A DNA stretch of 64,000 nt from the NCBI GenBank assembly GCA_964484565.1, contig CAZAGG010000001.1, forward strand, positions 25,066 to 89,065, given 5' to 3'. Below the pieces are notes generated by a model. It was not told the DNA's origin. It saw only the letters and a program-made list of their open reading frames with translations, and searched no databases. Shown here in pieces: positions 6,631 through 48,917 of the stretch (positions are counted from its first letter, which is position 1; each line of letters opens with the position of its first letter). The translations under genes and the position numbers were made by a program. The DNA comes from an uncultured Rickettsiales bacterium (GTDB taxonomy: Bacteria > Pseudomonadota > Alphaproteobacteria > Rickettsiales > CAZAGG01).

Positions 6631-7167
6631 TTAGAATCTAACTTTTGTATTGGTATAATTGGGAACCCAGCCATCCATACCCGAAAAATATCTTACTGCT
6701 TTGGTTCGTCTCTTTTCGCTTAAATGAAACCAATGCTCTGCATTCTTGGGTACGTTGATAAACTCTCGAGCCTCAACAGTCAACTCTACCTGTGAATTGT
6801 CTGGCATTACAAAACCAAACACACCTTCGCCGTCAATAATATAGCGAACTTCATCATCATCATGAGTATGGCATGGTGTGAATTTCGCAAGCATTTCGTC
6901 AAGATTCGGAATTCCGTCGTGAATAACAATCAAATCTCTGCTTTGATAACCAAGCTCATTTTTAAGTTTTTCAAAATAGTGATCGAGCTTTACAAGAACT
7001 ATCTCTTTTTCGCTGTCGCTTAAAGAACTTTTAGAAAGAAGACCTTCTAGCTCGGCATCATTTCCAATATCCCAAAACGATAAAGTAACATTGATTTGCT
7101 CAAGATACTGATTAATCTTGCTAAGATCTGTGATTGTGCTTCCATCTTCAAACAAAAGTTTCGCCAA
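6631..7167 (-). CDS. mtnD: acireductone dioxygenase (ARD, cupin)
   Basis: 178 aa with HTHDDDEVRYIIDGEGVF...AEHWF, the cupin metal ligands in the ARD arrangement. It uses a TTG start preceded by a strong SD (GGGAGGG, read on the minus strand at 7171-7179). Confidence 0.75.
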   Translation of the reverse strand: MAKLLFEDGSTITDLSKINQYLEQINVTLSFWDIGNDAELEGLLSKSSLSDSEKEIVLVKLDHYFEKLKNELGYQSRDLIVIHDGIPNLDEMLAKFTPCHTHDDDEVRYIIDGEGVFGFVMPDNSQVELTVEAREFINVPKNAEHWFHLSEKRRTKAVRYFSGMDGWVPNYTNTKVRF

Positions 7168-7345
7168 TCAACCCTCCCTAATTTTCTTTTTAAGAAGGCA
7201 CTATATATCGCAAAGCTATTCTATCTCAATAAAATTATTCACTGCCAGAATATGATTAAGTCATTATAATTAATTCATGAATTTTTTATGAATCTATTAT
7301 TTTATAAATCTCAAGATTGCCTGTAAAGCTAATTAGCCGATAACC

Positions 7346-8416
7346 CTAAATCTCGGTGATGTCGGCGAGTTTGGCAGCATTATCTTCTGTAATGAGATTG
7401 TCGATTATTTCGTCAATGTCGCCATTGATAAACTCTGGAAGTTGGTAAAGTGTTACGTTGATTCTATGATCGGTAACTCTGCCTTGAGGGAAGTTGTAGG
7501 TTCTGATGCGTTCAGATCTATCACCTGATCCTACTTGGTTTTTGCGATCTTCGGCTCTGGCATTGTCTTTGGCCAAGCGTTCCATCTCGTAAAGTCTTGC
7601 TCTAAGAACTTTCAAGGCTTTTGCCTTATTTTTATGCTGTGATTTTTCATCTTGTTGTGTGACGATTAACCCCGTTGGAAGGTGGACAATTCTAACGGCA
7701 CTATCTGTTGTATTAACGTGTTGGCCACCTGCACCAGATGAGCGATAAACGTCTATTCTAAGGTCTTTGTCTTCAATTTTAATATCAACTTCCTCTGCCT
7801 CTGGAAGCACTGCAACTGTTGCTGCTGATGTGTGAATTCTTCCACTGGATTCGGTTGTTGGAACGCGCTGCACCCTATGAACTCCAGATTCATATTTGAG
7901 TCTTGCAAAAACGCCATTGCCCGTAATGTTTGCCGATGCCTCTTTGTATCCACCAATTCCAATTTCAGATATATCCATTATCTCGAAACGCCAGCCCTTC
8001 TTTTCGCTATATCGTTGATACATTCTAAAAAGATCGGCAGCAAATAATGCTGCTTCGTCACCGCCAGTTCCAGCTCTAACTTCTATGATAACGTTTTTAT
8101 CGTCATCGGCATCTTTTGGAATCAGCGCGAGCAGAAGATTTTTTTCAATATCAGGAAGTTTTTCCTCAAGCGAGATAAGCTCTTCCTGAGCTAGCTCTTT
8201 CATATCAGGATCTGCAAGCATTTCCTGAGAAGATTTTATATCGCTTATGGTTTGATTATATGAATTAATTCGTTCCACAATTGTTTCTAAATCGGAATAT
8301 TCCTTTGAAGCCTTTGCAAACTCATCCGCTGAGAGATTTGGGCTTGCAAGCATATCTTGCAGCTCTTTATGTCGATTTGTAATTGCGTCGAGTTTATCTT
8401 TAAGTTTGTCTAACAT
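7346..8416 (-). CDS. prfA: peptide chain release factor 1
   Basis: GGQ motif ([16 protein letters not shown]) and RF1-type tripeptide region [17 protein letters not shown]. The start was moved to Met50 of the listed ORF (ATG at 8416). The longer form is hydrophobic junk and overlaps glyS on the opposite strand. Confidence 0.9.
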
Positions 8417-8490
8417 TTGCGCTCTTGAACTTGAATATTCCTTGTGCCATATATGTGGCGAATTGAACTTATATTGACTGAAAAGAAAAC

Positions 8491-10494
8491 ATGCAAGATT
8501 TACTAATTGAATTATATTCAGAAGAAATACCAGCGGGGCTGCAAAAGGCGGCGGCAGAATCAATTTGTGAATCTATAATCAAGAAGTTATCAGAGCAAAA
8601 GCTATCGCATGGCAAGAGCGAAGTCTTTTATTCTCCGCAGAGAATTGCGCTTATTATCAAGGATATTCCTGAAAATCAACCAGATGTAACAATAGAACGC
8701 AAAGGCCCAAGAACTAATGCTCCTGCGCAAGCTATAGAAGGGTTTTTGAAGTCAACAGGTTTAAGCCTAGCTGAGCTTACCGTTGAGGGAGATACATATT
8801 TCGCAAAGATTGAACAAAAAGGACGTGATTCAAAGTTGGTTCTTGCAGAAATAGCAAACTCGGCGATTGCAGGTTATACATGGCCTAAATCAATGCGTTG
8901 GGGGGAATATGAAGTTCGCTGGGTTAGGCCGTTACACTCGATTATTGCAATATATGGAACACAGATTTTAGATGTCTCTTATGGCCATATAAAGGCTTCA
9001 AATCACACCGTTGGGCATAGGTTTATGAGTGCAAATAGCATTACTATAAATCATGCTTCTGAGTATGTCGAAAAACTGCTCGCAAATAAAGTTATTGTAA
9101 ATCAAAATGACAGAAAGAATGTAATATCAAAGCAAATTGCAGACATATGCAAAGAAAATAATGTAACTCTCCGTGAAGATGCTAATCTGCTTGATGAGAT
9201 AAATAATCTCGTTGAATATCCCGTTGCTATTATTGGTCGCATTCATAACGATTTCATGGCCTTACCAGAAGAAGTTTTAATGACAGTTATGAAAAACCAT
9301 CAGCGTTATCTGAGCGTTAGCGATAAGAGTGGCAAGATGGCTCCATATTTCATTACCGTGTCAAATGTGAAAACGGCTGACAATCAGCAGGCGATTATTC
9401 AGGGTAACGAGCGTGTAATTCGCGCTCGCCTGTGGGATGCTAAATTCTTTTGGGAAAGTGATATTAAAACGCCACTTATGGATAATCTATCTAAGCTAGA
9501 TAACATAGTTTATCACGCCAAATTGGGCAGTGTAGGGGAGAAGGTAAATCGCATCGTTTTTCTTGCAATTGCACTATGTAAAGTTACTGGATGTGATGTT
9601 ATGACGGCAGAAAAAGCGGCACTTTTAGCAAAGACTGATCTTGTTTCTGGAATGGTTGGAGAGTTCGGAGAACTGCAAGGTATAATGGGCGGATATTATG
9701 CAAAAGCGCAAGGCGAATCAGATGATATTGCTATAGCAATAAAGGAGCATTATAAACCACAGGGTGCGAATGACGATGTTCCCACAAATAAAGTTAGTGT
9801 AACTATTGCTCTTGCTGATAAAATTGATTCTCTAGTATCACTTTGGAGCGTTGGCGAAAAGCCAACTGGCTCAAGAGATCCATTTGCTCTAAGACGTTCT
9901 GCAATTGCTATTATAAGGCTAATCATAACTAATAAACTATCATTTAATTTACGCGAGTTTTTAGCCGCCGAACCTTCTATTGTAAACGAGATAGAAGGCT
10001 TCATGATAGATAGGCTAAAAGTTATCTTAAAGGATATGGAAATTAGACATGATTACATAGATTCAGTAATTGGAAGTAACAAGCAATCTATTGATATATA
10101 TGACATATACACCAGAGCTAATGCTCTTAAAGAATTCTTGAAAACAGATGAAGGGATAAATCTTTTATCAGCATATAAACGTGCAGATAACATTTCAGCA
10201 GAGCATAAGGAATTTCAGGCAATAGATGTGAAGATTTGTAATGATACTCATGAAAAAGAATTAGCTAAGGCCATTGAAGAACTGCAAATTAGTGTAGATG
10301 AGCATCTTAAAAAGCGAAATTATATTGCAGCAATGCAAGAGCTATCAAAGGTTCATAAACCACTTGAAAGTTTCTTTAACAACGTGATGGTCAATTCTGA
10401 TGATATGGCAGTTAGAAATAACCGACTATCAATTCTAAAAGCAGCGGTAAATCTTACAAATGTGATTGCTGATTTTAGATTCATAGAAAGTTGA
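8491..10494 (+). CDS. glyS: glycine--tRNA ligase beta subunit
   Basis: 667 aa. The N-terminus [16 protein letters not shown] is typical of GlyS, and the length and anticodon-binding C-terminal region are consistent. Confidence 0.9.
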
Positions 10495-16871: not shown

Positions 16872-18074
16872 ATGAGTTCAAATGGACAAGCTGCAAGCAT
16901 TTACGAGCAGATTGAAAAAGAACTCTCTGATCGTTTAGACATTAAAAAATTTGAAAGACTTCATCACTTCCATCAGATTATTAAGTTATCTATTTTGGGC
17001 TGCTCTGATTTATTGATTAAAATAGATTCCTTTATTGGTGATTATTTAGCCGAGATGGCGAGGGATGAATATAAAATTAATATACCAAGTTTAGATGTTA
17101 TTTATGAGAGAATTAAAGGTATATCTAGCGATATTAACATTTTATTAGGGCAAGATATTGAATCTGATATTAATATCCTTTCTAATTTAGTGAGCAAACT
17201 TTGTGAATATCACGAGGAATTATATGCATGTAAAGATGCGATTGATGAATTTGCACAGGATGCAACTTTTAGCACAAACCAATACGAAAGAGTTCGTAAA
17301 ATACAACAGGATTTTAGTTCAATGACGACTGATTTTTCAGAAATTATCAGCGAGATTGTAACCTATCGCCATCCAATAGCAATTCCCTCTATCCAAACAG
17401 ATATAAAGTCTGAGATTGGACGATTTAGACAAAAGTTTAACGGAGACGCCGATGTAAATAAGTTAGCAGCTTATGTTAATCAAGCTCTTGAATCAGTAAA
17501 ATTTCTTTATGAAGAATCACCCCAGATTATTAATGAAAGTCTTGCTTTAGAAATTTTGGCCGGTGGTATGAAACCAAGTAATATTTATCGCATATTAGAA
17601 GAATCTGCTGATAGGGTCTCTTATCAAGGTAGGAAAGCAACTATAAAACTGCCTGAAATTATGAGCGAAGCACTCAGATTTATAGAACAATTTGGAATTC
17701 GTGACGCTGGATATTTGCGCGTTACCCAAACCTATATATTTGACGCCGCCGAACAATTTAATCAGCTTTATGGGATGATGCAATCTGCATCGAGAGGAGA
17801 GGTTGATATTGCAGAGTTAACTTCACCAAAAGGTGCAGCTACACTTGCAGTTCAAAAGCTAAATAACATAATGGAAAACATCCATAATAATATCTCTGGT
17901 CTTCAAGGTAAATATTCTGAAGAAAAATATGGAATCAACGCCATCTTGAAAAAATTACAGAAACAAATTGAGGCACTGCAAGGCAAAGACATTGTCGAAT
18001 CAGCTAATGTTACAATAGCTGGCAGAGAAAGTAGAGCTGGTGGCATTAGCGGCGCAGTAAATCCTTTTGCATAA
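16872..18074 (+). CDS. hypothetical protein (helical/coiled-coil rich orphan)
   Basis: 400-aa ORF. It has a strong SD (GGAGGG) 7 nt upstream of the ATG and is followed by a clean terminator hairpin. No recognisable domain. Confidence 0.6.
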   Translation: MSSNGQAASIYEQIEKELSDRLDIKKFERLHHFHQIIKLSILGCSDLLIKIDSFIGDYLAEMARDEYKINIPSLDVIYERIKGISSDINILLGQDIESDINILSNLVSKLCEYHEELYACKDAIDEFAQDATFSTNQYERVRKIQQDFSSMTTDFSEIISEIVTYRHPIAIPSIQTDIKSEIGRFRQKFNGDADVNKLAAYVNQALESVKFLYEESPQIINESLALEILAGGMKPSNIYRILEESADRVSYQGRKATIKLPEIMSEALRFIEQFGIRDAGYLRVTQTYIFDAAEQFNQLYGMMQSASRGEVDIAELTSPKGAATLAVQKLNNIMENIHNNISGLQGKYSEEKYGINAILKKLQKQIEALQGKDIVESANVTIAGRESRAGGISGAVNPFA

Positions 18075-18103
18075 GAACAAAACCCAGAGCCAAATACAAA
18101 AAA

Positions 18104-18127
18104 GCCTCACTAAATTGATAGTGAGGC
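18104..18127. terminator. bidirectional rho-independent terminator between the 400-aa orphan and rpmE
   Basis: Perfect 9-bp stem GCCTCACTA / TAGTGAGGC with a 6-nt loop. It is followed by CTTTTATAT on the plus strand and TTTTTTGT on the minus strand. Confidence 0.7.
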
Positions 18128-18164
18128 CTTTTATATATGAGTTAAAAAATAAAAACTTATCTTA

Positions 18165-22211: not shown

Positions 22212-24023
22212 ATGCAGAAATACTTTTTATATGGTTTGATTGTCGCGTTGCTTTCTCTAAATTCTGCCAATGCTTCAGTTGGAATCGCAATGTTCGGTGA
22301 ACCTAAGTATAAAGAGGGCTTCAAGCATTTTGAATATGTTAATCCAGATGCTCCCAAAGAAGGTGATATAAAATTTGGAGTAATAGGAACATTTGATAAC
22401 TTAAATCCTTTTATTCTTAAAGGAATTGCCGCAACTGGCAGTGATCTTGTATTTGAGACTTTATTAGAAAAATCAAAGGATGAACCATTTAGCGCATATG
22501 GATTGATTGCCGAAGATATTTCAATTGCTCCAGATAAATCATCTGTAACTTTTAAAATTAGAAAAGAAGCCAAGTGGGAAGATGGCACACAGCTAACCCC
22601 TGATGATGTTATTTTCTCTTTTAACATATTGAAAGAAAAAGGCCATCCCGCATATCGCAGTTATTATAAAGATGTTGCAAATGCCGAAAAAGTTGGAAAT
22701 CACAGCGTGCGCTTTAACATAGCAAATAAAGAGAACAGAGAGCTACCATTGATACTTGGAGATTTGCCAGTTCTTTCAAAGAAATTTTTTGAGACAAATG
22801 ACTTCACTAAAACCACAATGCAAAGAGTTATGGGCAGCGGACCATATAGAGTTGAAAAGGCAGACGCTGGAAGAAGCATCACCTATGTTAGAAGAGACGA
22901 CTATTGGGGCAAAGATTTACCTGTGCAAAAGGGACGTTATAATTTTAGAACAATAACTTATGATTATTATAGAGATGAAACGGTTGCTGTTCAGGCAATC
23001 AAGGCTGGAAGCTATGATATGAGACTAGAAAATATTGCTCGTGTGTGGTCAACAGCCTATGAAGTGCCTGCGGTTAAGGCTGGAATGCTTAAAAAAGAAG
23101 TCATAGAACATCAAGTCCCAAGCGGAATGCAGGCTTTCATTATTAATAATCGGAGAGAGAAGTTTTCCGATATTAACACGAGAAAAGCTCTATCTCTAGC
23201 TTTCGACTATGAATGGGCGAATAAGAATTTATTCTACGGCTTATACAATAGAATGAAGAGTTTTTATACTAACTCGGTTTTTGCAAGTTCTGGATTGCCT
23301 CAAGGAAAAGAGTTGGAAATCTTAGAGAAATATAAAGATAAAATTCCGCCAGAAATATTTGCAGAGGAATATAAAAATCCCGAGACAGATGGTACGGGAA
23401 ATAATAGAGAAAACCTTAAAAAGGCTAGTGAACTTCTTGCAAATGCAGGTTGGGTTCTAAAAAACGGCAAGTTATATGACAAAAATGGCAATCATTTTAG
23501 TATTGAGTTTCTAATAGATTCACCCGTTTTTGAAAGGGTATTTTCAAATTACGTCAAGAACCTTGCGATACTTGGAATTACGGCAAATATTAGAAATGTT
23601 GATAGCGCACAATTTCAAAAACGTTTAGAAGAATTTGATTTTGATATTACCGTCAGGGTGTTTCCTCAATCCCTTTCACCAGGTAATGAGCAAATAGATT
23701 ATTGGCATTCCAGTCGTGCAGATGTTAAAGGAAGTCGCAACTTGGCAGGAATCAAAAATCCTGTGATAGATGAACTTGTCAATAAAATTATCACCGCTAA
23801 GGATTATGACACACTTCTCGCATCAACCCACGCTCTAGATAGAGTTTTGCTGTTTAACCACTATGTAATTCCTAATTGGCAATCAAAATTCTGGCGTATT
23901 GTTTATTGGGATAGATTTGGAAGACCTCAAGTTCCAGCAAAATATGATTTAGGATTTGTTGATACATGGTGGATTGAATCAGATAAAGATGCTAGAATAC
24001 AGGAGTATTTAAAAAGGAAATAA
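22212..24023 (+). CDS. ABC transporter substrate-binding protein, family 5 (YejA/oligopeptide-like)
   Basis: 603 aa with a signal peptide ending SANA. The length and sequence pattern match the cluster-C peptide/microcin-type SBP family. No permease or ATPase genes lie adjacent. Confidence 0.8.
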   Translation: MQKYFLYGLIVALLSLNSANASVGIAMFGEPKYKEGFKHFEYVNPDAPKEGDIKFGVIGTFDNLNPFILKGIAATGSDLVFETLLEKSKDEPFSAYGLIAEDISIAPDKSSVTFKIRKEAKWEDGTQLTPDDVIFSFNILKEKGHPAYRSYYKDVANAEKVGNHSVRFNIANKENRELPLILGDLPVLSKKFFETNDFTKTTMQRVMGSGPYRVEKADAGRSITYVRRDDYWGKDLPVQKGRYNFRTITYDYYRDETVAVQAIKAGSYDMRLENIARVWSTAYEVPAVKAGMLKKEVIEHQVPSGMQAFIINNRREKFSDINTRKALSLAFDYEWANKNLFYGLYNRMKSFYTNSVFASSGLPQGKELEILEKYKDKIPPEIFAEEYKNPETDGTGNNRENLKKASELLANAGWVLKNGKLYDKNGNHFSIEFLIDSPVFERVFSNYVKNLAILGITANIRNVDSAQFQKRLEEFDFDITVRVFPQSLSPGNEQIDYWHSSRADVKGSRNLAGIKNPVIDELVNKIITAKDYDTLLASTHALDRVLLFNHYVIPNWQSKFWRIVYWDRFGRPQVPAKYDLGFVDTWWIESDKDARIQEYLKRK

Positions 24024-24060
24024 TGAAATCACCTAAATTCGGAATAAGGATGAGAAAAAA

Positions 24061-24240
24061 CGCTCCCCCTTTATGGGGGAGCCATGATGAGCAAGGCGAA
24101 GCTGCCGCTCGATTTGGTGGGGTACTACATGCTTTCAACATTCTTTTCAAATGTTTTGAAAGGAATGCGAAAACCCCCACAGAATCGCTTTCGATTGCTT
24201 AGCAATCTTAGCTCTTCCGCTCCCCCATAAAGGGGGAGCG
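24061..24240. repeat. 180-bp MITE-like or sRNA-like element bounded by 22-bp perfect inverted GC-rich hairpins
   Basis: The left end 24061-24082 is CGCTCCCCCTTTATGGGGGAGC. It equals the reverse complement of the right end 24218-24240 (CGCTCCCCCATAAAGGGGGAGCG) over 22 nt. Each end is itself an 8-9 bp GC stem with a 5-nt loop. The interior is much more GC-rich than its surroundings. Confidence 0.55.
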
Positions 24241-24310
24241 TATAATGCTCTGTTTTTTATCTCGAATTGATGTTATAATAACGAAATCACTAAAATTTGG
24301 GAGTTTAAAA

Positions 24311-24808
24311 ATGGCAAAAGATCTTGTTACGGTTAGTAAAAACTATCCTTCAGTCGATACAGTTAGTGAAAAATTGCAGTTACTTTTAGCAGATTCATAT
24401 TCAACACTACTCTTAACCCACAACTATCACTGGAACGTTGAAGGAAGGCTGTTTTATTCCCTGCATAAAATGTTTGAAGAGCAATATAACGAGCTATTTG
24501 CAGCCGTTGACGAAATTGCAGAAAGAGCAAGAGCTTTAGATTCTTATGCTTTTGTTGGGGGTTATCAAGATATGCTTGCATCTACAACTTTTAAAGCGGC
24601 AAAATTGCCTTTTGGAAAAGATGCCGATAAGGTGGCGATGCAGATGGTTGAAAATCTCGTATTAGCAAATGAGGCAATTGTAAAATCTGCTAAACTTGCA
24701 AGAAAAGCAGCCGAGACAGCTGGAGACGATGAAACAGTTGACCTAACTGTTGAAAGAGTAACATTGCATCAGAAAAATATCTGGATGCTTAAAAGCCATT
24801 TGAAGTGA
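24311..24808 (+). CDS. dps: Dps family DNA-protection / ferritin-like protein
   Basis: LLADSYSTLLLTHNYHWNVEG..F..LH..FEEQY.EL...DEIAER is the Dps ferroxidase-site pattern. The start was moved to the ATG at 24311, which has a GGGAG SD 8 nt upstream. Confidence 0.85.
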   Translation: MAKDLVTVSKNYPSVDTVSEKLQLLLADSYSTLLLTHNYHWNVEGRLFYSLHKMFEEQYNELFAAVDEIAERARALDSYAFVGGYQDMLASTTFKAAKLPFGKDADKVAMQMVENLVLANEAIVKSAKLARKAAETAGDDETVDLTVERVTLHQKNIWMLKSHLK

Positions 24809-27306: not shown

Positions 27307-27552
27307 ATGCCACTTTATATCAAAGATGAAGAAGTAAGCAAAATAGCTCGCGAACTAGCAGCTATTAGAGGAGTTAGTATAACTGAAGTTTTGCGAAGTT
27401 CCTTAAAAAAAGAAGCAGATGAAAAAAATAAGGAAAGCTATAATAAATTTCTCGCTAAAATAAAGGTTATTCAAGAACAAGTAGCTGCCTTGCCAGATCG
27501 TGATTCGCGCTCTATCCAAGAAATTGTTGATGAAGTTAATGATGTAAATTAA
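27307..27552 (+). CDS. vapB: type II antitoxin, VapB-like (PSK-operon / Rv0623-like family)
   Basis: 81 aa. MPLYIKDEEV..IARELA...G.SITEV is the N-terminal pattern of antitoxins paired with PIN toxins. Its stop overlaps the vapC ATG (TAATG). Confidence 0.75.
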   Translation: MPLYIKDEEVSKIARELAAIRGVSITEVLRSSLKKEADEKNKESYNKFLAKIKVIQEQVAALPDRDSRSIQEIVDEVNDVN

Positions 27553-27950
27553 TGATTATTGACACATCAGCGATTATAGCAATTCTTCAAAATGAGCATG
27601 ATTATGAAAAATACGCACAAGCTATTTATAATTCACAAGAAAAATATATTTCTTCGGTAAACTATTTTGAAGCTAAAATTGTGATGATTGGTAAGAAAAT
27701 TGACTACATTCAATCTCGCATAGATATACTTTTAATTGAGTCTAATATTGAAGTTTATGAAGTTAATCAAAATCTTGCCAATATTGCCGCAAAAGCCTAT
27801 GAAAAATATGGCAAAGGAAGGCACAAAGCCGCATTAAACTTTGCTGATTGCTTTTCATACGCGCTAGCAAAGCATATGAAAATGCCCCTGCTTTTTAAGG
27901 GCGATGACTTCAGCCTCACTGATGTTAAAAAAGTTAAAATATTTGGGTAA
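27552..27950 (+). CDS. vapC: type II toxin, PIN-domain ribonuclease VapC
   Basis: 132 aa. It has MIIDTSAIIAIL (first acidic residue D4), a later conserved E (YFEAK), and a C-terminal FADCFSYALA...LLFKGDDF motif typical of VapC. Confidence 0.85.
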   Translation: MIIDTSAIIAILQNEHDYEKYAQAIYNSQEKYISSVNYFEAKIVMIGKKIDYIQSRIDILLIESNIEVYEVNQNLANIAAKAYEKYGKGRHKAALNFADCFSYALAKHMKMPLLFKGDDFSLTDVKKVKIFG

Positions 27951-28013
27951 CCTATATGGCATAGTGAAAGGCTGGGGATATATACAACTCACTTTCATCA
28001 CAAAATTGCGGAT

Positions 28014-28120
28014 CGACTTGTTAAACGAAGCCTTAGCGTAGTTTAAATGTGAAGCGATCCAAAGAAACTAGCTTTCTATTTCTGGATCGCCTCATCGCTA
28101 AAGTAAATCACGAAGACAAC
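28014..28120. repeat. GC-rich intergenic repeat, copy X (inverted relative to copy Y at 47262-47362)
   Basis: The 28-nt core CGACTTGTTAAACGAAGCCTTAGCGTAG (28014-28041) matches the reverse complement of 47335-47362 at 26/28 positions. Weaker similarity continues for about 70 more nt. It contains a 13-bp interrupted hairpin (28054-28090, GCGATCCA.AGAAA / TTTCTGGATCGC). Confidence 0.5.
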
Positions 28121-28166
28121 GGAGTAAATCCGCAGCCTTCTTACGGGAATGGATATTTGAAGGGAT

Positions 28167-45631: not shown

Positions 45632-45691
45632 TATTCTCAGTTTATATTATACTAGTGAAGGATAGTAAAAATATTGATAACAGGGCAAAAA

Positions 45692-47251
45692 ATGCAGCTA
45701 CCAAGAGTAACATATACAAATTACAACGTAGATTTTTCGCCACTTCATGATTATCTTGACAGGTTAATTCCTGAATTTAAAAGAGATTATCTCGGTAAGA
45801 CTTATCCCAATATAATTGATGGGTTGGAAAGCAAAACAGGCGATTTATACAAACTTTCAAGCCCTATAAGCTCAGAAATAACACTTGGCAGCTTTTATTC
45901 AGCAAATAAACAAGTTGTTTCTGATGCTATTACATCCGCAAAAAATACCTATAAAACTTGGAGCGGCCTTAACTGGCGCGAAAGAGTTATGATAATGCAA
46001 AGAGTTGCACATGAGCTTGATAAATACAAATATATTTTAGGTCTTGCAGCTCTTTATGAGGTTGGCAAATCTCGTTTGGAAGCAATTGGAGAAACAGAAG
46101 AAGCCGCGGATTTTGTGAAATACTACTGCGATGAAATGGAGAAAAATAATGGCTATAGTGGAAATACTTCAAGGGCTTATCCCAATGAAGATGCGAAATA
46201 TATTTTAAAGCCTTACGGAGTTTTTGCCGTTATTTCGCCGTTTAACTTTCCCGTTGCAATGGCCGTGAACATGATTACAGGCGCAATACTCACGGGAAAT
46301 ACATGTGTTTTTAAACCTAGCCCAAATTCTGCATTAACCGCCTCAATTCTGGTTGATGTGCTGCACAAAGCTGGCCTTCCAAAAGGAGTGGTAAATCTTG
46401 TTTGTGGAGGCGATGAAACAGGAAAAGCACTAAGCGATAGCCCAGATATTGACGGTATTGTATTCACAGGCTCATATAAAGTTGGCATGGAGTTATGCAA
46501 GAAAATGACTTCAGGCAATTATATCAAGCCTTGTATTGTTGAAATGGGCGGCAAAAACCCATCCTACGTTACGGCAAAAGCTGACATTGAAGCTGCAGCA
46601 TATGGGGTTATGCGTTCTAGCATGGGCATGTGTGGCCAGAAGTGTAGTGCGAATTCAAGAGTTTATGTTGAAAAATCAATCGCTGCATCATTTAAAGAAA
46701 GGCTTATATCATTAATTTCACAGATAAAAATTGGAAATCCTGAGAATAAAGACATCTATCTTGGCCCAGTAATCGATGATAATGCAGTCTCAAGATATAA
46801 GAAAGTGGCAGACGAAGCTAGAAAAGATGGCAACATAATATTTGGCGGCAACGTAATAAAAGATAAATACGTTGAGCCAATGGTTATTGAAAAACTAGAA
46901 TGGTCGCATCGTTTAAATCGTGATGAACTGTTTCTGCCGATATTATCAATTCTAGAATATGATAACCTTGAAGATGCAATTAAAGACGGAAACTCAGTAA
47001 ATTATGGATTAACCGCAGGTTTCTATAGCCTTGATTCAAAGGAAGTTGAGACTTTCACAAATCTTGCAGAGGCTGGAGTTCTCTATATCAACCGAGCAAG
47101 CGGCGCAACAACAGGCACTTGGCCGGGAACTCAAACCTTCACTGGATGGAAAGGCTCAGGCGGCTCAGGAAAAGGTGGAATGGGCCCTTTCTACCTTCCT
47201 CAATTTATGAGGGAACAAAGCCAAACTCGCTGGTTCGGCTTAATGCTATAG
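45692..47251 (+). CDS. aldehyde dehydrogenase family protein, 1-pyrroline-5-carboxylate dehydrogenase-like
   Basis: ALDH motifs are present: ISPFNFPVAM, VEMGGKNP and CGQKCSANSR (the GQKCSA variant typical of P5CDH). The start was moved to the ATG at 45692, which has AGGG upstream. Confidence 0.8.
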   Translation: MQLPRVTYTNYNVDFSPLHDYLDRLIPEFKRDYLGKTYPNIIDGLESKTGDLYKLSSPISSEITLGSFYSANKQVVSDAITSAKNTYKTWSGLNWRERVMIMQRVAHELDKYKYILGLAALYEVGKSRLEAIGETEEAADFVKYYCDEMEKNNGYSGNTSRAYPNEDAKYILKPYGVFAVISPFNFPVAMAVNMITGAILTGNTCVFKPSPNSALTASILVDVLHKAGLPKGVVNLVCGGDETGKALSDSPDIDGIVFTGSYKVGMELCKKMTSGNYIKPCIVEMGGKNPSYVTAKADIEAAAYGVMRSSMGMCGQKCSANSRVYVEKSIAASFKERLISLISQIKIGNPENKDIYLGPVIDDNAVSRYKKVADEARKDGNIIFGGNVIKDKYVEPMVIEKLEWSHRLNRDELFLPILSILEYDNLEDAIKDGNSVNYGLTAGFYSLDSKEVETFTNLAEAGVLYINRASGATTGTWPGTQTFTGWKGSGGSGKGGMGPFYLPQFMREQSQTRWFGLML

Positions 47252-47261
47252 CTTAGGCTCT

Positions 47262-47362
47262 TCTGATAGCGGACGGCTTTATCGGCGTAATAATCCAAAA
47301 AGCACGATTTTTTCTGAATTGCTTCGCCTTTAACCTACGCCAAGGCTTCGGTTAACAAGTCG
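47262..47362. repeat. GC-rich intergenic repeat, copy Y (inverted relative to copy X at 28014-28120)
   Basis: 47335-47362 (CTACGCCAAGGCTTCGGTTAACAAGTCG) is the reverse complement of the X core with 2 mismatches. Flanking similarity continues leftwards. Like X, it sits between convergent genes. Confidence 0.5.
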
Positions 47363-47470: not shown

Positions 47471-48544
47471 TTATTTGTAACTTCTTAATCTTAACAAATG
47501 ATCTGCCAGAGTGATTGCAAGCATAGCCTCACCAACTGGAACGGCGCGAATGCCAACGCATGGGTCGTGCCTGCCTTTAGTAATTAGGTTGGTTTCGTTT
47601 TTATTTTTATCTATTGTTGCCACACTTTGCAGAATTGAACTTGTGGGTTTTACTGCGAATCTCACCACAATATCTTGCCCGCTTGAAATTCCGCCTAAAA
47701 TTCCACCTGCATTATTTGATAGAAATATTGGATTGCCATTGTCATCCACCCTAATTTCATCAGCGTTTTGTTCGCCGCGAAGTTCGGCGGCAGCAAAGCC
47801 TTCACCAATTTCAACCGCTTTAACCGCATTAATGCTCATCATTGCTTTTGCTATATCAGCATCGAGTTTATCATATACTGGCTCACCAAGCCCAACTGGA
47901 ACGCCCTCAGCCACAACCTCTATAATTGCACCAACGGAAGAACCTGCCTTTCTAACTGAATCGAGATAGTCTTCAAAATGCTTTGCGGCTTCTTTATCAG
48001 GACACCAGAATGGATTGTTTTCTACCTCACCCCAATCCCAGTTATTGCGATTTATTTTTTCTGTTCCCATTTGCACTAACGCGCCACGAACTTTGATGTT
48101 TGAGCCTAGAATTTTTCTGGCAATTGCTCCTGCTGCAACGCGCATTGCGGTTTCTCTGGCACTTGAACGTCCACCGCCCCTATAATCTCTGATTCCATAC
48201 TTCATAAAATATGTATAATCGGCGTGCCCTGGACGGAATTTATCTTTTATATCGCCATAATCTTTGGAGCGTTGATCTTCATTGAAAATCAGCAGACTTA
48301 TTGGAGTTCCTGTGGTTTTGCCCTCAAAAACCCCCGACATTATTTTAACTGTGTCGCTCTCTCTGCGCTGAGTGGTGAATCTTGAAGTTCCTGGTTTACG
48401 GCGGTTTAGCCAAAACTGAATATCCTCTTCACACAAATCTATGAGTGACGGAACGCCGTCTACCACCGCGCCTATAGCTTCGCCGTGGCTTTCGCCCCAT
48501 GTTGTGAAATTGAAAACTTTTCCAAAACTATTAGATGATGACAT
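47471..48544 (-). CDS. aroC: chorismate synthase
   Basis: The N-terminus is [15 protein letters not shown], with GRSSARETA and RHDPCV motifs. The start was moved to the ATG at 48544, because the 23 extra codons of the listed ORF overlap yraN. Confidence 0.95.
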
Positions 48545-48548
48545 ATTA

Positions 48549-48917
48549 TTATAAAGTCCACGCTGATTTGATATGATGTGGAAGTTTATAAGGCGATATG
48601 GCAATCGCATCAAGCCTTATATTATAATTTGCATATTCACTTTTGCTATTCAAATAATACTCAGCCGCTCTTAAGATTCTACCTTGCTGCTTTTGCGAGA
48701 TTGATTCAAAGGCGCTATCAATGTTTGGACGATATTTAATCTCGCAGAAAACTATAAACCCGCCTTTTTTGGCGATTAAGTCAATTTCACCAACTTTGGT
48801 TTTATATCTTCTTTCTAAAATTCTGTATCCTTTTAAAAGCAGATATATTGCGGCAACTAACTCTGCAATAACGCCGTTTTTATATGATTTTTTGCCGTTT
48901 TCCGATTTTCTAAGCAA
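48549..48917 (-). CDS. yraN: YraN family (UPF0102) endonuclease-like protein
   Basis: 122 aa with GEIDLIA......VF.EIKYR, a PD-(D/E)xK-like pattern. Confidence 0.8.

Follow-up and report, generated by a model that had tools for sequence, protein, structure and literature searches.

Two intergenic gaps in the genome of an uncultured Rickettsiales bacterium carry diverged copies of one structured element, here called X and Y. Both lie in the 64,000-nt stretch of DNA that was analysed as a whole (the window). We propose that the two are ancient copies, by now diverged, of a small, dispersed, non-coding hairpin repeat of the REP/REPIN kind, a reading to which we assign even odds (about 0.5). It draws on the repeat dynamics of the element, its indifference to gene orientation, its patchy presence at orthologous sites, the outer stems around its copies and a folding that is specific to one strand, traits expected of REP/REPIN-type elements and not of a cis-regulatory RNA that belongs to particular genes. 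The 5′ part of the element is a 36-nt hairpin with an unpaired tail, CGACUUG, and hairpins of this family occur in the metagenomes of other organisms.

Short palindromic repeats are usually private to a lineage, with a consensus that differs between taxa. The CGACUUG hairpin instead keeps its tail and loop while its stem changes freely, and its carriers include an alphaproteobacterium and a Luteitalea-like acidobacterium as well as a Chloroflexota-like contig. Should a dedicated protein recognise this hairpin, it would offer a handle on how such an element spreads across phyla, or constitute a new recognition module between a protein and a small RNA or single-stranded DNA. For the annotation of the source genome the message is modest: the gaps holding X and Y contain repeat copies and not genes, small RNAs of a known type or terminators.

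Two inverted copies in convergent gaps

The window has a G+C content of 37.7% and its genes are tightly packed. X lies in a gap of 216 nt (27951-28166) between vapC on the plus strand and an orphan ORF on the minus strand, whereas Y is flanked by an aldehyde dehydrogenase gene and aroC (Table 1). Both gaps are convergent (3′/3′). X begins 63 nt past the vapC stop codon and ends 63 nt short of the stop codon of the orphan ORF; Y lies 108 nt past the aroC stop and 25 nt from that of the aldehyde dehydrogenase gene. Each copy is oriented in the sense of its upstream gene (vapC for X, aroC for Y), and the two are inverted relative to each other at a distance of 19.2 kb. The first-pass annotation of this DNA had called the X gap much more GC-rich than its flanks. 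With 41.2% against 32.6% and 30.4% in its two flanking genes the enrichment is real and mild, and "much" overstates it. The Y gap (40.6%) does not exceed its flanks, and the genes neighbouring the two gaps span 30-43%.

Table 1. Positions in the window of X and Y, their parts and the flanking genes. R1, full-length covariance model whose only input was X and Y; R2, model of the 5′ module.
Feature	Position	Strand	Remarks
vapB-type antitoxin (PSK_trans_fac)	27307-27552		vapBC pair with PIN toxin
vapC toxin	27552-27950	+	PIN domain (Pfam)
Outer inverted repeat, 5′ arm TGCGGAT	28007-28013	+	abuts X
Copy X, 90 nt, CGACTTG...CGCTAAAG	28014-28103	+	R1, 113 bits
X conserved 36-nt hairpin module	28014-28049	+	R2, 49 bits
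X second long hairpin, GUGAAGCGAUCCA...UGGAUCGCCUCAU	28049-28095	+	encloses hairpin 28054-28090
X 3′ end, CGCUAAAG	28096-28103	+	inverted partial copy of loop unit CUUAGCG (28033-28039)
Outer inverted repeat, 3′ arm ATCCGCA	28128-28134	+	part of minus-strand hairpin 28112-28140
Orphan ORF, 149 aa	28167-28616	-	no Pfam match
Aldehyde dehydrogenase gene flanking Y	45674-47251	+	
Y second hairpin, GGCGAAGCAAUUCAGAAAAA...UUUUUGGAUUAUUACGCC	47285-47328	-	compensated changes relative to X
Copy Y, 86 nt	47277-47362	-	R1, 105 bits; identical sequence in L003
Y conserved 36-nt hairpin module	47327-47362	-	stem UUAACC/GGUUAA, loop GAAGCCUUGGCGUA; R2, 58 bits
aroC flanking Y	47471-48613	-	

Apart from its exact match, the best AroC among 5.8 billion proteins is only 78-79% identical, and the relatives that carry a name are metagenome-assembled genomes labelled "Rickettsiales bacterium" or "Alphaproteobacteria bacterium". 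The source organism therefore belongs to an isolated, uncultured alphaproteobacterial lineage. The exact protein sequence of VapC is present in the records and that of the orphan ORF is absent. Identical copies of X and Y were found on contigs of one sequencing run (Logan SRR12997673), an accession that no paper was found to mention.

The 28-nt core of X (28014-28041) recurs on the minus strand at 47335-47362 with 2 mismatches, as first annotated, and 100 dinucleotide-preserving shuffles yielded no match to it. The looser similarity described beyond this core is borne out as well. A repeat finder extends the ungapped similarity to 54 nt at 83%, and a gapped alignment pairs 28014-28103 with 47362-47277. 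Of its 86 aligned bases 63 are identical (73%), and it contains one 4-nt indel. Identity is concentrated in the 5′ module (32/36) and lower in the remainder (31/50). The edges are abrupt: similarity starts exactly at CGACTTG and stops at TAAAG.

We considered whether X and Y might be remnants of a duplicated gene 3′ end, an IS end, an attachment site, or inverted repeats produced by an inversion of the 19-kb segment between them. Their inverted arrangement at 19.2 kb would suit this idea, as would a shared reading: translated in one frame, each copy closes with ...DLL(N/T)EALA and a stop codon. However, the sharp start at CGACTTG argues against it, Y has an in-frame stop two codons upstream, and the indel breaks any downstream frame. 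The upstream stop in Y and the indel rule out both coding readings that were tried, DLLNEALA* and a small GTG ORF at 28049-28207. BLAST searches of plasmids and phages with X and with the consensus returned no true matches, and neither a tRNA nor a tmRNA was found in the window. Among the Pfam-annotated genes of contigs L001, L002, L003 and L130, which cover most of the window, we saw no recombinase or transposase, Y1_Tnp included. Finally, the 36-nt module stands as a free hairpin in many unrelated contigs. We regard an origin as a gene, IS or inversion remnant as hardly credible.

Other sequences in the window are of interest in their own right. A direct repeat of about 70 nt occurs at 32873-32941 and 34229-34299, with a 42-nt core that is 90% identical. 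The first copy is the 3′ end of another aldehyde dehydrogenase gene (31466-32938). The second follows a 380-aa ORF (33055-34197), which is coiled-coil-like and has no Pfam family above the cut-off, and overlaps the 3′ end of a minus-strand ORF (34255-35124). The arrangement resembles an insertion of 1.36 kb that carries a single gene, with a duplicated target on either side. Separately, a self-complementary, G+C-rich 23-mer (ACGCTCCCCCTTTATGGGGGAGC and its complement) occurs at 24060-24082 and 24219-24241, 136 nt apart, within the 221-nt gap between the ORFs 22212-24023 and 24245-24808. It represents a second type of short hairpin repeat in this genome. The stretch 7167-8491 is not non-coding: it holds a 356-aa PCRF/RF-1 release-factor gene (L002 2728-3798).

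A fold that survives divergence

Aligning X on the plus strand with Y on the minus strand, RNAalifold predicts two hairpins. The first is UUAAAC[GAAGCCUURGCGUA]GUUUAA, with an A-U to C-G compensation between the copies. It is preceded in X by the 5′ tail CGACUUG; its stem pairs 28021-28026 with 28041-28046 (UUAAAC/GUUUAA) and closes the loop GAAGCCUUAGCGUA, which itself contains inner GC/GC pairs and a CUUA tetraloop. The second hairpin is a long stem that shows additional two-sided and wobble changes between X and Y. The hairpin originally seen at 28054-28090 is real and forms the inner part of this longer stem (28049-28095). Likewise, the outer TGCGGAT/ATCCGCA repeat around X is present and its arms pair in the minimum-energy fold. 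A further hairpin, GAAGGCUGCGGAUUUACUCCGUUGUCUUC, lies on the minus strand at 28112-28140, just past the stop codon of the orphan ORF and ahead of GUGAUUUACUUUAG; probably it serves as the 3′ hairpin of that ORF itself.

Despite 23 substitutions, Y retains 19 of the 21 base pairs of the X fold. When 23 substitutions were placed at random 100,000 times, at least 19 of 21 pairs were kept in 0.28% of placements (p about 0.003). Three pairs have changed on both sides with compensation, which 1.8% of random placements reach (p = 0.018). Since random substitutions so rarely retain 19 of 21 pairs, the fold has been preserved through about 27% divergence. Folding energy is inconsistent as a guide to the folding strand: the antisense strand is the more stable one for X (-29.7 kcal/mol, sense -24.1 kcal/mol) and the sense strand for Y (-21.5 kcal/mol, antisense -17.2 kcal/mol). 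In the single-sequence minimum-energy fold of X, its 3′ end CGCUAAAG pairs with CUUAGCG in the loop of the first hairpin, so X may also be drawn as one long hairpin. Folded in this predicted way, X can be viewed as two inverted units around a spacer, in a REPIN-like arrangement.

Strong hairpins in two convergent gaps had led to the suggestion of a bidirectional terminator. X and Y might then be intrinsic terminators, or simple stabilising 3′ hairpins, that resemble each other through shared constraints; the X region does fold better than its shuffles (z -2.8 to -4.3). This suggestion fails because the U-tract is missing. No hairpin at X or Y is followed by one on either strand (the sequence 3′ of the second hairpin is CGCUAAAGUAAAUC in X and GAUAAAGCCGUC in Y), and a terminator scan of both strands found no site at either copy. 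The Y fold, moreover, is no better than shuffles (z -0.96 and -0.11). Shared constraint cannot account for 28 nearly identical nucleotides of unpaired and loop sequence, and in other genomes the family is neither restricted to gene ends nor fixed in orientation. X and Y are not canonical terminators, and we hold the explanation as a whole, terminators or stabilising 3′ hairpins alike through shared constraint, to be improbable.

Known RNA families offered no identity. Rfam 15 gave nothing at the gathering threshold in the window and, with E-values up to 10, chance-level matches only in the X and Y gaps; in 15 metagenome loci it found tRNAs only. A promoter scan found no site on X or Y, and the two copies share no conserved promoter-like sequence upstream. 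In a comparison by eye, the consensus sequences of attC, CtrA-box, parS, DnaA-box, K-turn and sarcin-ricin did not fit the motif. In the literature, the sequence strings of the family occur only as unrelated primers, and no relevant paper in the library that was searched contains them.

A CGACUUG hairpin family in metagenomes

Neither R1 nor R2, run with filters off, detected a copy beyond X and Y in the window or in adjoining contigs of the same sample, which add about 11 kb. The density is therefore two copies in about 75 kb of the source genome. The fixed-stem core GACTTGTTAANCGAAGCCTTNGCG had 0 matches in 185,579 GTDB species genomes and 0 in JGI metagenomes, which showed that the AU-stem version is private to the source genome. 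The stems of structured elements vary freely, and we therefore searched JGI metagenomes with a pattern that specifies tail and loop and leaves the stem unconstrained (CGACTTG-N6-GAAGCCTTNGCGTA). There were 46 matching stretches, against roughly one expected by chance for 20 fixed bases, which is a rough estimate for a collection whose size is not stated. Viral contigs gave 0 matches to the same pattern. The wider family anticipated in the first-pass annotation is thus absent from the window and its surroundings and present in the metagenomes of other organisms. The similarity of X and Y stands far above shuffled sequence, and neither matches a gene or an IS end.

The stem itself, left free in the search, is complementary. 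Comparing the six free bases with the six that follow GCGTA in 37 distinct contexts, all six pair in 26 and five of six in 11; full pairing by chance has a probability of (6/16)^6, or about 0.3%. In an alignment of 35 sequences, 96.4% of the stem cells are paired, compared with 81.8% in column shuffles, none of which (0/500) reached 96.4%. Five of the six stem pairs vary on both sides in this alignment, and pairing drops to 26-54% when the partner is slid by 1-3 columns. The search pattern itself dictates part of the apparent invariance of tail and loop, and the independent evidence consists of the stem pairing and the existence of the 46 matches. Mismatches within the stems are G.U in 10 cases and A.C in 2 (one-sided p = 0.019). 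This excess of G.U over A.C indicates that one particular strand folds, as RNA or as single-stranded DNA.

The family module can be described as a CGACUUG tail, a free 6-bp stem, a GAA/GUA internal loop, GC/GC pairs and a CUUR loop. X (UUAAAC/GUUUAA) and Y (UUAACC/GGUUAA) both have this architecture, with all six stem positions paired. The usual stem in the family is UCCNCC/GGNGGA; only X and Y have AU-rich ones, which agrees with the low G+C content of their host. When R1 was run on the metagenome loci it produced 41 matches (E-values 1.7e-8 to 5.5e-3), all through the first 36 nt only. Hence the second hairpin, which X has in common with Y and which the metagenomic family lacks, is specific to the source genome, and the 36-nt module is the shared unit. 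A further 11, more divergent copies were detected in the metagenome loci with R2.

Host contigs of the family range from 34 to 68% G+C. One (L118) comes from a Luteitalea-like acidobacterium, as the adjoining ABC ATPase is about 85% identical to Luteitalea proteins. Another (L090) may tentatively be placed near Chloroflexota, going by an adjoining CTP synthase whose best named relatives are Chloroflexota proteins of 57-60% identity.

The arrangement of the copies is that of a repeat. In one contig (L103, 7036-7265), three copies of the 36-nt hairpin fall within 230 nt, and two of the three have a further hairpin, GCGCTCCGTCGCTAAAGCTCTGGAGCG, nested in their loop. The nested piece contains CGCTAAAG, the terminal string of X. 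Other loci carry tandem arrays of a GAAGCCTTGGCGTAGGNGG unit. In three contigs (L100 1052-1085, L111 1059-1094, L084 7484-7519) the hairpin is itself nested inside another widespread repeat, of the form ...GTCATTGCGAG...GCAATC... By our reading of the sequences, many copies are directly enclosed by an outer inverted repeat, as X is (e.g. L109, L112, L118, L128), and these outer repeats suggest insertion into hairpins that already existed.

The proposal that the element lodges in 3′/3′ junctions holds for X and Y and is not a rule, since elsewhere family members also occur in gaps between genes of the same direction and ahead of genes, in both orientations. Copies antisense to both confirmed neighbours were found next to RecG (L085, where a copy lies 72 nt from a tRNA gene), HlyD/ABC ATPase (L094), PHO4/JAB (L115) and MraZ (L097, upstream of mraZ). 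The copy beside CTP synthase in L090 is in sense, and the sequence reads as though further sense copies lie downstream of ORFs resembling GatB and SufB.

Presence at orthologous sites is patchy. The convergent ABC-ATPase/glutaminyl-cyclase gap has an ortholog in the complete Luteitalea pratensis genome, and no copy is found there. Around aroC, R1 and R2 had no match in 80 other genomes (1.3 Mb) and none in three closer relatives, motif fragments in L135 excepted. Because the nearest AroC is just 78-79% identical, comparing intergenic sequence with these aroC relatives is uninformative. The exception, L135, whose AroC is 78% identical, carries the loop unit twice in inverted arrangement at 17979-18081 (TTACGCC...GGGCTTCGGG and CCCGAAGCCTTGGCGTAA), directly downstream of a tRNA-Val(GAC) gene (18076-18152). 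This pair is a REPIN-like doublet, and the 73-aa "gene" called over it is probably spurious.

These observations could be accommodated by the following model. One strand of the element would fold as a single-stranded nucleic acid, and the folded hairpin together with its fixed 5′ tail would be recognised by a protein acting in trans. By analogy with known systems, the recogniser is most plausibly a single-strand transposase of the HUH/Y1 type encoded elsewhere, which would copy the element to intergenic sites where it does no harm, frequently within or next to hairpins already there. If transcribed, X and Y would add stable 3′ hairpins to the vapC and aroC mRNAs, an effect that would be secondary at most. 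Searching the metagenome loci by tblastn with two probes, IS200 TnpA and an approximate RayT sequence, gave nothing at E <= 1; since the RayT probe is approximate, this is a weak test. Further points against the model are the low count of two copies in about 75 kb, the lack of a visible target-site duplication at X and Y, and the position of GTAG at the boundary of loop and stem instead of the hairpin foot.

The conserved structure and the 20-odd bases common across phyla lead us to keep a serious rival. Here, the 36-nt hairpin would be a functional structured RNA motif. It could serve in 3′ UTRs, for protein binding or for processing, or be a small RNA in its own right; X and Y would be functional paralogues, protecting or processing the transcripts of vapBC and aroC. 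The covarying stem with fixed internal-loop and tail bases in very different genomes speaks for such a motif, as does the structure kept between X and Y at 27% divergence. The excess of G.U in the stems points to one folding strand, X and Y are both in sense to an upstream gene shortly past its stop, and T-runs follow some of the metagenomic copies. Indeed, 20 identical bases across phyla and a structure kept at this divergence fit a motif useful to the host at least as well as a selfish element. However, of the metagenomic copies that are well resolved, about half run antisense to both confirmed neighbours, X and Y have neither a conserved promoter-like sequence upstream nor a terminator, and copies are not kept at orthologous sites. 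Nested and tandem copies resemble repeat dynamics, Rfam has no matching family, and the fixed bases are imposed by the search pattern. We thus view a functional RNA motif, with X and Y as its working copies, as possible, though on the unlikely side.

Rather more speculatively, the 36-nt hairpin might be a previously undescribed motif that crosses phyla and has a specific molecular partner, either as the hairpin recognised by an uncharacterised system that mobilises single-stranded DNA and passes between phyla, or as a small functional RNA. X and Y would then be its AU-stem form, adapted to an alphaproteobacterium of low G+C and maintained by selection for the structure. We offer this broader idea as a doubtful one.

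Comparison with known repeats and hairpins

Rho-independent terminators share with X and Y a stable hairpin just past a stop codon, and the T-runs after some metagenomic copies add to the likeness. Terminators do not need conserved bases in loop or tail. In contrast, the CGACUUG hairpin has its conserved bases in exactly these parts, and X and Y have no U-tract on either strand. Another parallel are the GC clusters of yeast mitochondria, mobile, GC-rich palindromic clusters in AT-rich organelle genomes. Where the family occurs in contigs of 34-39% G+C, its GC-rich nested hairpins in AT-rich spacers look similar. Yeast clusters nevertheless belong to another domain of life and differ in sequence, and the stems of X and Y are AU-rich.

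ERIC/IRU, Correia and RPE elements are, like X and Y, about 90-150 nt long, non-coding, hairpin-forming and dispersed, and they are often co-transcribed at gene ends. X and Y lack the terminal inverted repeats of 20-26 nt and the target-site duplication of these elements. The flanks, GGAT|...|TAAA for X and GAGC|...|CCGT for Y, share no duplication. The ends of X and Y read CGACTTG... and ...CTAAAG, with only an internal unit partly inverted at the 3′ end, so that they do not have the make-up of a MITE. There is no sequence relation to X or Y in any of these groups. Whereas ERIC, Correia and RPE elements are each confined to one genus or family, the CGACUUG module crosses phyla. RPEs, moreover, are in-frame insertions within genes, unlike the intergenic X and Y.

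The closest likeness is with REPs and REPINs, the repeats linked to RAYT. A REP is an imperfect intergenic palindrome of 20-40 nt, and the 36-nt module, with its 6-bp stem, internal loop and 2-bp stem, has this form. Both have a fixed unpaired sequence directly 5′ of the stem. HUH/Y1 transposases, as in IS200/IS605 TnpA and RAYT-REP complexes, read such a fixed unpaired tail 5′ of a bulged hairpin. As with REPs, the CGACUUG family occurs as single copies, as inverted doublets (L135, and the 5′ and 3′ units of X) and in clusters; copies are found in either orientation to genes, often near gene 3′ ends, and one strand folds preferentially.

There are also differences. The 5′ foot is CGACUUG and not GTAG/CTAC, and the one GTAG in the module stands at positions 25-28, where the loop gives way to the 3′ arm. 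REPs have a cognate RAYT gene that is single-copy and usually flanked by REPs; a RAYT gene was not seen among the Pfam-annotated genes that cover most of the window. REPs run to tens or, in classic cases, hundreds of copies per genome, compared with two in the roughly 75 kb of the source genome covered here. Between taxa, the consensus motifs of REPs have little similarity (PMC12306157), whereas the same 20 or more bases recur across phyla in the CGACUUG family, whose stem sequence is free and covarying.

Taken together, the first-pass suggestion of a REP/ERIC/Correia-type family was right in that X and Y belong to a family of structured intergenic repeats. Membership of REP, ERIC or Correia is not supported, as some of the features that define them are lacking, and the CGACUUG family resembles them in kind only.
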